Shown: positions 42,220 through 45,347, numbered from the stretch's first letter. The stretch: 64,000 nt of DNA from a virus (IMGVR_UViG_3300014039_000027:1-64000); one strand, 5' to 3'. Notes: a model not told the origin generated them from the sequence alone. Translations and numbers: made by a program.

Positions 42220-43908
42220 TCATTCCTCCCCAAACCATTTCTTCGTCACCACGATGGGAAACTGCTCGATCTCGCTTGCCCACCGCGCCATGCCTCTGCC
42301 GTGTATTCTCTCGAAAGCTAAGGGGAAACCCCCTATGCCATCAAACAAGCTCCCCAGCGTCGCGCCCTCCGGCAGATACCGCGCCATACGCCGCAGCATC
42401 CACTCCCAGAAAGGCAGGGCGATGGAGTTCCCCAGCGCCTTGTACTTGGGGCTGTCCGCGTCCTTGTGCTTCTTGCCCTTCTCGTCCACCCAGTCGCCGA
42501 TGTCCACCCAACCGTAAGTGCTCACAATTTGCTGAACCCTGCTTTTGCAAATTCCGTATTTTTCGGAAAGCTCTTTCGTCGTCATTTCACCGCTTCTGTA
42601 CAGTTCAACAACTTCCTTTCTCTTTGAAACTGGCAATTTTGTGGATGGGTTGTCATCGCCAACCAAGTATCGCCCATCACGGTGCGCTTTGTGTGAGTTT
42701 TCCTCCGGCGTTAATAGCTGTAAATTGCTAATCCGATTGTCCGCTTTGTCGTTGTTTATATGGTCAATAACATAGCCTTCGGGGATAATTCCATTCTTTG
42801 CAATCCACACCACGCGGTGTACCCGGCATTGCAATTTTGTGTCACCATTCCTAATGCTTACAACTCTGTACCCGTTGACGTTAGTCCCCGCAAGAAGCCT
42901 CGGTTCAGAAAGCCTTTTACCTCCCGGTCCTTTCGTTGTATATATCTTCCCATTCTCGCAATCAACCACAATTTGCCCGGAGGCAATATTGGCTGCAATA
43001 TATTCGTCTTTCGTCATTTCTTCTATGTTCATCTCCATAAACTCCGGATACCCCTGCAGCCGGGTACATTCCAGCGGCGTCAACCGGCGCACCACCATGT
43101 TCTGCACCGGGTATGTCTCCGCATCCTCCCGGTACGCGCAGTTGGCTTTTGCCCGCAATGTTTTCGACACATCCGGATTCTCTGCGCCGAAAACAAGCAT
43201 ATCATTATAGGCATCCTGACCGTTGTAGCTTCCCGCATGAGCGCCGGGAGATAGCGTTCCCGCAACGTCCTGATATGTAAGCGGTATCTGATTGCCGCCC
43301 GTGCCCATTCGTGCCTGTAATGCCGGTGCCTGCTCTCCGCAGTCGCGTATCACATCGCAGGCGTGGGACATATCCAGCACCGCGCAGGGTACATGGGCGT
43401 TCGCATTCAGCGTATGGCACGGCTTGCCAAACTCCGGCTGGCTTCCGTTTTCCTTGCTGGTAATCTGCGTAGTGTCAAAGGCCATCACCGCTGGGGTTTG
43501 GTTCGTCCCGCTGGGTGTAGCCGCCAGTGTGGGCGAAACTTCTTCGCTGTACCCGATACCCCCCGCCTGTGCGCCCTGTCCCGCTTTGAACCCAGCACAT
43601 AGCACGGCTTCACGGTTCAGCCCGCTGTTTTCGCGGGAGCTCAGCGTGGGCGAGATGCCGTCCCCATCGTACACACGCTGGCTCTGCGCGTCCCAAGGCG
43701 TCATGCACATCACCCCGTGTCGGTCGCCTGCGGTCAGCGTTGGGGAGGGATCGCCCTCTTTACCCACGCCCAGCCCATTGCCGCTTCCATCGTGATTGCG
43801 GTTCTCTCCGCCACCCTGCCACCGCGTGGCTTTGTCGTTGATGGGAATTGCCGTAAATATCGTCTGATCGTTTCCCGTGCCCAGCGTCCCGCTTCTCTCC
43901 GTCTGCAC
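42220..43908 (-). CDS. C5 cytosine methyltransferase, C-terminal half (TRD, IX, HNH insert, X, I, II)
   Basis: RRLTPLECTRLQGYP (IX), YKALGNS (X), SLFDGIGGF (I) at the C-terminus. Confidence 0.85.
   Translation of the reverse strand: MQTERSGTLGTGNDQTIFTAIPINDKATRWQGGGENRNHDGSGNGLGVGKEGDPSPTLTAGDRHGVMCMTPWDAQSQRVYDGDGISPTLSSRENSGLNREAVLCAGFKAGQGAQAGGIGYSEEVSPTLAATPSGTNQTPAVMAFDTTQITSKENGSQPEFGKPCHTLNANAHVPCAVLDMSHACDVIRDCGEQAPALQARMGTGGNQIPLTYQDVAGTLSPGAHAGSYNGQDAYNDMLVFGAENPDVSKTLRAKANCAYREDAETYPVQNMVVRRLTPLECTRLQGYPEFMEMNIEEMTKDEYIAANIASGQIVVDCENGKIYTTKGPGGKRLSEPRLLAGTNVNGYRVVSIRNGDTKLQCRVHRVVWIAKNGIIPEGYVIDHINNDKADNRISNLQLLTPEENSHKAHRDGRYLVGDDNPSTKLPVSKRKEVVELYRSGEMTTKELSEKYGICKSRVQQIVSTYGWVDIGDWVDEKGKKHKDADSPKYKALGNSIALPFWEWMLRRMARYLPEGATLGSLFDGIGGFPLAFERIHGRGMARWASEIEQFPIVVTKKWFGEE
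42515..43042 (-). mobile_element. 528-nt in-frame HNH plus HTH insertion inside the methyltransferase
   Basis: RVHRVVW...DHINNDKADNRISNL; low GC; precise removal restores CCG GAC GGT TGG (PDGW). Confidence 0.85.
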
Positions 43909-44552
43909 TAACGCGCCTTTTCCTCCGCCGTCACAGCCCCCCCCCTGATGCGGACTGCATAAGAAGTACTTGTTTCAGCAGCTTCGGCAGATCCTTCCCC
44001 CGCCGTTCCGCCCTCCGCAATATCCCCTGACACGCTTTTGCGGTCAAATTGTATTTCGGATGCGGTGTCTCCTCCAAAATCTGCGACAACCGAGATACGA
44101 CGGCGGCGTTGGGGCACTCCCCAGTATTGCGCGTCGTGAGTTCGCCACACCACGCTCCATCGTCCTCCCACTTCATCGTGGTAGCCCCCCCAGGTAGGCC
44201 AGCCCTTTTCAGGCACTTCAATACCGGGGGCTTCCGGCTCGACGATTTTGATGATTTCTTCGAGCACGGCTGCGAAGTCTTTTCCTTTGTTGCTGCTAAA
44301 GGCTCCGACCACGTTTTCCCACACGAGATACCGAGGTCTGACCATGTCACCTGTCCGTCCATTCCTTTTGTCCGCCTCCCTCATTTCTTTTACAATGCGT
44401 ACCTGCTCCATAAACAGGCCGCTTCGCGCACCGGCAAGCCCTGCGCGTTTTCCCGCGATACTAAGGTCCTGGCATGGGCTTCCGCCGGTGATGCACCACA
44501 CCGGCTCGATCTCCGCGCCGTTGATCTTCGTTATATCTCCAAGATGTACCAT
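43908..44552 (-). CDS. C5 cytosine methyltransferase, N-terminal half (motifs III-VIII)
   Basis: GDITKI, GGSPCQD, WENV, DAQYWGVPQRRRR. Confidence 0.88.
   Translation of the reverse strand: MVHLGDITKINGAEIEPVWCITGGSPCQDLSIAGKRAGLAGARSGLFMEQVRIVKEMREADKRNGRTGDMVRPRYLVWENVVGAFSSNKGKDFAAVLEEIIKIVEPEAPGIEVPEKGWPTWGGYHDEVGGRWSVVWRTHDAQYWGVPQRRRRISVVADFGGDTASEIQFDRKSVSGDIAEGGTAGEGSAEAAETSTSYAVRIRGGAVTAEEKAR
43931..44362 (-). CDS. Overlapping alternative-frame polypeptide, M.EcoHK31I-beta-like
   Basis: LSQILEE...KYNLTAKACQGILRRAERRGKDLP; nested in the N-terminal half; ends just past the G tract. Confidence 0.6.
   Translation of the reverse strand: MDGQVTWSDLGISCGKTWSEPLAATKEKTSQPCSKKSSKSSSRKPPVLKCLKRAGLPGGATTMKWEDDGAWCGELTTRNTGECPNAAVVSRLSQILEETPHPKYNLTAKACQGILRRAERRGKDLPKLLKQVLLMQSASGGGL
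43937..43945 (-). repeat. G9 homopolymer at the three-frame junction
   Basis: C9 on plus strand; G8 fuses the nested frame, G7 or G10 fuse the catalytic frame to the C-terminal half. Confidence 0.9.
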
Positions 44553-44555
44553 GTT

Positions 44556-45347
44556 CTAATCTCCAAACACCACGCCGCACTCGTCCTTCAGCACGTCCTT
44601 GATGTGCCTCCGCTTGATGCGGCCTTCGTTTATCTCCTCTGCCAGCTTCTCCAGGCACTCATACAGGTACGCGATGCTCTGCGTGTCTCGGCTGTCCGCT
44701 GTCTCCTCAAAGACGTGCCAGCCGCACTTGTCTATCAGCACCATCGCCACCATGTCCATGTTCTCCCGTGTGCCTTGCAGCTTGCCTTTCATAAATAACC
44801 GTTCGTCCCGGCTCAAATGCTGCTTGCCCATCGTCAATCGTCCTCCGAAATACGCACGATCTCATAGCACCCGAACCGTCCGCCGTTTCGGTATGCCTTA
44901 CATATCGCGCTTCGTGTGCTGGCGTAGGATCTCCCGGACCGATGTGCCAGTTCCGCCGTGGTGGTGCCCCACCATCGCGGCAGCCGATATTTATCCCGCG
45001 ACACGATCATATACACCGTCGTCATGGCCTTACACCTCCCCGCACCGGCGCAGACGCAGGCTGTCCGCCAGCTCCTGTGCCGACCGCTTTCCCCTGTGCC
45101 GTCTGTCCTTTTTGCTCTCCCAGCAGTTGCGGCACTCCGGGTACGGGCAGTTCATGCACTTGTCTATCCTTGCCTGCGGTTCCCGCTGCTCGTCCACCAG
45201 CGCCCCGCTTAAAAATCGTCCCGTTTCTCCGCAATGTTCCTGCCTGTGGCTCTCCGCCGCGGCATCCACCGTCAGCCACGGCGCCTTGGCGTTTCCAAGG
45301 CTCCGTACAAACGCGCCGACGCTCATCGTTCCCTGCATTGCGTACAT
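44556..45347 (-). CDS. Three hypothetical genes (44556-44837, 44834-45025, 45030-45347)
   Basis: Overlapping ORFs with RBS. Confidence 0.5.

Follow-up and report, generated by a model that had tools for sequence, protein, structure and literature searches.

A nested alternate-frame gene and a poly-G junction in a circularly permuted gut-phage C5 methyltransferase: a probable two-state toggle of chain topology

A locus on the minus strand of IMGVR_UViG_3300014039_000027:1-64000, a stretch of 64,000 nucleotides (nt; the window, along which all positions are counted) from an 80.7-kb IMG/VR gut-phage record, appears to encode a single C5 methyltransferase (C5-MTase) in three reading frames, A, B and C, that meet at a run of G. 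The reading that we consider probable is a two-state toggle, in which the enzyme would be produced either as an A-C chain accompanied by free B or as A accompanied by a B-C chain, the hyphen denoting fusion of two frames. Frame A would supply the catalytic core (motifs III-VIII), frame C target recognition, motifs IX and X and the relocated cofactor-binding motifs I-II, and frame B, predicted to be a separate nested gene with its own ribosome-binding site, a conserved three-helix tail. The G run at the three-frame junction would be prone to slippage and its length modulo 3 would set chain topology. In lineages with the short linker found in the window, G7 (or G10) would give one long A-C chain and a free B of about 150 amino acids (aa), G8 would give two chains, A and B-C, and G6 or G9 would fuse nothing. 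The B tail is proposed to be an essential module of the enzyme, provided in trans in the A-C state and in cis in the B-C state, so that both fused states would be active.

An earlier note on this DNA had placed the three frames in all three phases meeting at G9, and had calculated that G8 joins B to C, that G7 or G10 joins A to C and that G9 joins neither. Direct reading of the minus strand, with A, B and C in phases 0, +1 and +2, respectively (Table 1), agrees with both the coordinates and the arithmetic, and the G7 and G8 fusions are realised in natural relatives. B-C fusion is seen in the G8 relatives L087, L011 and L049 ('...LLMQSASGGGCDGGGKG...'), and A-C fusion in the G7 relatives L001, L005 and L043 ('...SYAVRIRGGCDGGGKG...'). 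Variation in tract length is real, spanning G5 to G9 among relatives with the consequences for frame expected of a contingency locus. The survey of fusion types in homologs proposed in the same note was carried out as a pattern scan of IMG/VR, and no single fixed length emerged from it. Among 87 distinct junctions that could be classified, 52 were A-C, 33 were B-C and two were unfused, one a short-linker locus (L013, G6) and the other a long-linker locus (G8). Fusion of either kind is common in nature, and unfused junctions are strongly depleted.

The relatives fall into two linker classes, short (as in the window) and long (+70 nt). With the short linker, G7 gives A-C (34 junctions), G8 gives B-C (13) and G6 is unfused (1); with the long linker, G7 gives B-C (15), G6 gives A-C (5) and G8 is unfused (1). 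The tolerated direction of tract change is therefore reversed between the two classes (Fisher p=0.002), as expected if selection acts on the frame outcome rather than on tract length, a pattern that neither sequencing bias nor mutational bias would predict. A tree of 50 loci with a junction, from which the tract was excluded, requires the state to flip many times, with at least 15 changes (15-18 with shuffled labels). Among IMG/VR loci, no pair with at least 98.5% identity on both flanks was found to differ in state, the nearest pairs being ∼98-99% identical upstream. Either state can also be found without an intact run: L028 is locked as B-C through 'AGGAGTC' and has no G run, L041, L046, L052 and L007 are A-C with broken runs, and in L019 a neighbouring compensating 1-nt deletion restores A-C. 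Bacterial genomes contributed 39 A-C and 28 B-C loci, and both architectures occur without any G run in cultured bacteria, the B-C isolates including Hathewaya proteolytica DSM 3090, Angelakisella massiliensis and Lawsonibacter hominis.

Several further features of the junction were observed. The tract is the only run of at least G8 in the window and is exactly nine bases long; such a run is no surprise for the base composition (shuffles yield a mean of 5.8 matches), and its significance lies in position and conservation, not rarity. The stop that follows the tract out of frame (window 43906-43911) is kept at the same spot via different codons in the diverged relatives L041, L046, L053 and L054, either as the rare Leu codon TTA followed by G (TTAGTG) or as CTG followed by ATC (CTGATC), so that the non-fused frame always ends within ∼30 nt. 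In the long-linker class (L003, L006, L016, L039, L045 and L047; compare window 43950-43975), the additional 70 nt lie between GCAGTC(C)G repeats and occur amid otherwise near-identical genes, which suggests that cassettes were exchanged through recombination at short repeats. The CDGGGKG module is missing from a third type of linker (L002, L004, L022 and others). A second run, G7, lies within frame A (WGG) at window 44185-44191 on the minus strand but is not a conserved feature of the family. Loss of 1 nt from this second G7 accounts for a small number of database proteins (e.g. P0090; also P0168) that are A-to-B fusions without motif VIII.

Frame B consists of a leader of ∼85 aa overprinted on motifs VI-VIII, followed by a conserved tail, 'SRLSQILEETPHPKYNLTAKACQGILRRAERRGKDLPKLLKQVLLMQS'. 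Codon-phase entropy across 72 unique phage homologs indicates that frame A is selected up to motif VIII, after which both frames are constrained for ∼50 nt. In the B tail itself, entropy at the third position of B codons is.89, compared with.53 and.31 at the other two positions, pointing to selection on frame B only. Within the dual-coding core, 18 nt (TTGTCGCAGATTTTGGAG; 'VADFGG' in A, 'LSQILE' in B) are nearly invariant across the same 72 sequences. The dual-coded stretch uses A codons that are otherwise avoided (GAT TTT in 59/59 and ATA in 56/59 sequences), because they are fixed by frame B. No homolog has a stop codon in the frame of the B tail. Upstream of it the +1 frame is open for 75-113 codons in all 59 unique phage sequences, whereas synonymous shuffling of A leaves it open only ∼20% of the time. 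At 106 of 128 unique loci a Shine-Dalgarno core stands 4-13 nt before an ATG that is itself no more than 14 codons from the last +1-frame stop. The two elements move jointly between lineages, as AAGGAG-N7-10-ATG in most and as GGGAGG-N12-ATG (44362) in the lineage of the window. Programmed +1 ribosomal frameshifting from A to B was considered and set aside, and independent initiation of B is favoured, because frameshifting needs neither the +1 frame, open for 75-130 codons before the conserved part, nor the conserved Shine-Dalgarno core and ATG. By these sequence measures, frame B is a real conserved gene with its own start, under purifying selection.

The nested frame is not confined to gut phages of the window type. 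At 80 bacterial-genome loci, mostly of ordinary motif order, the same +1-frame tail is present in 73 of 74 cases. For 34 unique bacterial A-C sequences (the 39 loci above), third-position entropy in B is 1.42, against.78 and.63, and amino-acid identity in the tail region is.65 in B and.29 in A. A nested +1-frame tail also occurs in Mycobacterium phage Porcelain (L082), Caulobacter phage DMCA and a gut phage with a 728-aa enzyme; its presence in L082 and in the Caulobacter phage L083 extends the nested frame to actinophages and a Caulobacter phage. The Porcelain annotation divides the methylase between two genes that overlap in different frames (gp116/gp117), and the nested +1 peptide after motif VIII reads 'LSDILE...KYFLSAKACQGILRRAAKRGRKLP'. 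A hidden Markov model of the 45-residue B tail matched 4165 clusters at 50% identity (1.84 billion representatives). The best 150 matches comprised 101 resembling nested B, 41 resembling B-C fusions and 7 with an A part upstream of the tail; all 7 are without QRRRR and represent either a frame switch before motif VIII or chance matches, and none of the best 150 combines QRRRR with the B tail in a single frame. In a large protein collection, B-C fusions with the B tail in frame account for more than 1283 called proteins, one of which (P0111) is found on 82 contigs from several sources.

No Pfam family was found for B, a profile of B against PDB sequences recovered no relative of the tail with a solved structure, and a protein-atlas look-up of a B homolog returned 'hypothetical protein' clusters only. 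The B tail (∼50 aa) is predicted with moderate confidence to form three helices (predicted local distance difference test, pLDDT, about 77-79). An AlphaFold model of an A-C homolog is confident only to about residue 170, the end of 'EILF', which is exactly where selection on frame A ends; the A tail that replaces B in A-C enzymes is unselected and predicted to be disordered. AlphaFold models of the B-C and A-C chains had a mean pLDDT of 50, with the target recognition domain (TRD) unmodelled.

Table 1. Features of the methyltransferase locus, in positions of the window.
Feature	Position	Strand	Details
Frame A open reading frame (ORF), 213 aa	44552-43908	-	ATG 44552, TAG 43910-43908; PF00145 E=7e-22
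Frame A motifs	PCQ 44477-44469, ENV 44318-44310, QRRRR 44111-44097	-	direct reading
Frame B Shine-Dalgarno-like GGGAGG	44375-44380	-	12 nt 5′ of ATG 44362
Frame B ORF, 143 aa	44362-43931	-	ATG 44362-44360, TGA 43933-43931; nested within A, +1 frame
Dual-coding core	44046-44089	-	A = 'VADFGGDTASEIQF', B = 'LSQILEETPHPKYNL'
Frame C	open 43974-42220	-	584 codons open; 562 aa counted from GTG 43908
Poly-G tract, G9 in record	43945-43937	-	meeting point of frames A, B and C
TAGTG, A stop overlapping frame-C GTG 43908	43906-43910	-	lone candidate from which a free C chain could start under G9
Frame C motifs IX and X	IX VRRLTPLEC 43092-43066; X GNSIA 42432-42418	-	direct reading
In-frame HNH_3 nuclease + helix-turn-helix insert, between motifs IX and X	42505-43044	-	HNH_3 E=1e-18; HTH_28
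Frame C motifs I and II	I FDGIGG 42345-42328; II ASEIE 42279-42265	-	direct reading

The identity of the enzyme follows from its motifs. Pfam places C5-MTase (PF00145) in both A and C, the match in C being weak and at motif IX, and HNH_3 in C. Frame A contains motif III (LGDI) and all three catalytic motifs, IV (SPCQ), VI (ENV) and VIII (QRRRR), then 'VADFGG..EIQF' and an unselected tail that closes at the TAG of the G9 allele. Frame C begins with a 'CDGGGKGALVQTE' segment and a mosaic TRD, continues with motif IX (VRRLTPLECTRLQG), the nuclease insert and motif X (GNSIA), and ends with the S-adenosylmethionine-binding motif I (FDGIGG) and motif II. A comparison of one homolog (P0003) with PDB gave marginal motif IX matches only. 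Both the window and single-ORF homologs have the order III-IV-VI-VIII-TRD-IX-X-I-II, and homolog C-terminal ends read '...FDGIGGFPL...WASEIEEFPIAVTKLRFGED'. Since motifs I-II sit at the C-terminal end, the enzyme is a circular permutation of Type B (Class B), defined by an N-terminus between motifs II and III and by motifs I-II after X (PMC5944983). According to the same study, Type B permutation is seemingly absent from nature, engineered Class B permutants (cp62M.MpeI and cp58M.SssI) were the most active of all permutants, and the split fragments Mpe[62-279] + Mpe[280-61] were active (PMC5944983). The engineered enzymes share with the present one the motif order and the new N-terminus between II and III, and the two fragments correspond to chains A and C here; they differ in having no nested frame and no tract. 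The nuclease insert is shared by P0066 and L068 and absent from most relatives (P0015 and P0003 read 'RLQGYPDGWVDIGDW' without it), and no intein-like ends were seen on it. Directly downstream lies a gene for a Dam-type N6-adenine methyltransferase (PF05869; 41769-42233, minus strand), which shares 14 nt with the end of frame C, so that two methyltransferase genes stand in tandem in this phage.

The alternative that survives best is on/off phase variation, in which one fused state would be active and the others off, the phage population hedging on whether to methylate its own DNA. It has in its favour a well-known mechanism, homopolymer-driven on/off switching of methyltransferases, together with the very frequent state changes on the tree and the unselected, disordered A tail that substitutes for B in A-C enzymes. 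We nevertheless regard it as unlikely, since fragments of a Class B permutant split at the same place are active (PMC5944983), since both states are locked without a G run and occur in cultured isolates, and since the B tail is selected in both. An off state should moreover be as dispensable as the unfused one, yet the unfused state accounts for 2 of the 87 junctions and B-C for 33.

A second alternative is slippage of RNA polymerase or the ribosome, whereby any one DNA allele would yield both A-C and B-C and DNA length would only set their ratio. Long homopolymers can cause transcriptional slippage and ribosomal frameshifting, and the run is kept uninterrupted across diverged lineages though synonymous codons could break it. 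Many lineages manage without any run, however, and the fact that unfused DNA alleles are so strongly depleted speaks for an effect of length at the DNA level, making this explanation improbable.

The earlier note had gone further and proposed a three-state switch, with G9 used either as an off state or for a three-chain enzyme in which C is re-initiated at TAGTG. Its two fused states stand; the third has fared poorly, and we give it a slight chance, somewhat below that of slippage. The record itself reads G9, the described overlap of the A stop with a GTG start is present, with GGAGGA 12 nt upstream, and the census contains two other unfused loci (L013, G6, with the short linker, and one G8 with the long linker). 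Against these stand the rarity of unfused junctions (2/87) and the loss that re-initiation would entail, as a C chain from GTG 43908 would miss the conserved 'CDGGGKGAL' segment; nothing was found in favour of this GTG as a start for C, nor any hint of a three-chain enzyme. Alleles of this phage were also read from Logan contigs of four runs from one study (X15-X18). X15 has G8 (0.96 of words, depth 39) and is otherwise identical over 790 nt, X16 and X18 have G8 as well, and X17 has G7 plus three substitutions. None of the contigs of these four runs has G9. Because they give G8 or G7, the G9 of the record is most likely an assembly or sequencing error, or else a minor, short-lived null variant, and the usual allele of this phage would be G8, i.e. 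two chains, A and B-C.

That all length differences are homopolymer sequencing or assembly errors around one fixed real architecture is very improbable: G runs of 7-9 are error-prone, most of the data are metagenome assemblies and the G9 is contradicted by an independent assembly, probably of the same or a sister sample, but the tolerated direction of length change reverses with linker class as error bias would not, A-C and B-C forms occur without homopolymers, with compensating indels and in isolate genomes, and the B-C protein P0111 recurs on its 82 contigs from several sources.

The 5′ part of the gene is variable as well. In X17 and X18, a different sequence of 109 letters takes the place of window 44459-44556. 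The first ∼80 nt of the gene (codons 1-30) have an AT-rich alternative in at least 21 IMG/VR relatives, closed by a 4-nt TAGA insert that directly follows the codon of the catalytic Cys (CCT TGT TAGA CAG GAT) and gives an in-frame TAG and a frameshift (L032, L034-L036, L038, L039, L043-L045, L047-L049, L051, L055-L057, L059, L068, L070, L077 and L080). In L060 (4080-4110) a 26-nt insert directly 3′ of CAGGAT (the PCQD motif), flanked by CAGGAT direct repeats, breaks the frame and looks like a footprint or small insertion.

Several considerations weigh against the two-state toggle as proposed. The role of the B tail as an enzyme module is argued from its conservation and gene position, and the activity of either fused allele (G7 or G8) would follow from that proposed role. 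The counts of A-C, B-C and unfused junctions come from metagenome assemblies that include related contigs, so that the statistics overstate independence. Recombination of linker/TRD cassettes, besides slippage, may have moved topology on the tree. The four runs were examined as contigs, and the variation in tract length that they show is between runs. If the two-state toggle is correct, it may serve an adaptive purpose (tuning, or on/off), or it may flip almost neutrally from one working architecture to another. A tentative extension, which we would not rate as likely, is that the G run is a maintained contingency locus that, rather than merely turning a gene off, rewires subunit topology, with the B tail as an essential module acting in trans or in cis, and so tunes the level or timing of methylation against host restriction.

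Elements of this arrangement resemble known systems. M.EcoHK31I is a heterodimeric C5 methyltransferase whose beta chain, an obligatory subunit, is encoded in another frame inside the alpha gene (PMC2836561), and the earlier note had likened frame B to it. The likeness holds in that B is a small polypeptide wholly within a methyltransferase gene in an alternative frame, with its own start and under purifying selection; it fails in that the M.EcoHK31I beta chain holds motif IX, whereas here motif IX is in frame C and the B module is a predicted three-helix tail placed after motif VIII along the gene. A G tract or fusion toggle is also not described for M.EcoHK31I, and the present locus is in addition circularly permuted. 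The G8 (B-C) state corresponds to an M.AquI-type split, with two overlapping genes divided between motif VIII and the variable region. This split is found in the G8 relatives L087, L011 and L049 and in the 28 bacterial B-C loci, and not in the G9 record. Unlike the M.AquI type, the overlap here is ∼100 codons or more and dual-coding, the second chain also holds motifs I-II, and in the relatives a 1-nt change in the G run can undo the split. Phasevarions rely on simple-sequence-repeat phase variation of DNA methyltransferases, e.g. ModM (PMC6902483), and share with this locus a homopolymer within a methyltransferase gene that alters length and hence reading frame. The classical cases are on/off, whereas here two of three frames give complete enzyme parts with different chain topology, and the host of the locus is a phage. 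Searching the literature for overlapping or alternate-frame genes in C5 methyltransferases, and for phase variation of C5 methyltransferases in phages, brought up no specific report.

Three rare features coincide at this locus: a Type B permutation of natural origin, a dual-coding overlap that is both long and conserved, and, where the frames meet, a slippery tract. The locus extends two known kinds, homopolymer phase variation and heterodimeric or alternate-frame C5 methyltransferases. What is new is the junction census and the linker-class asymmetry, which together speak for a two-state toggle selected on frame outcome and against a third state. Gene callers treat B-tail genes inconsistently, calling B-C fusions while many nested B ORFs are labelled 'hypothetical', and an assembly in which such a gene differs by one base in a homopolymer should not be taken as evidence of a pseudogene. 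Phage methyltransferases shield phage DNA from host restriction, and their build and regulation bear on gut host range; here one enzyme would have two interconvertible chain topologies, one nucleotide apart.

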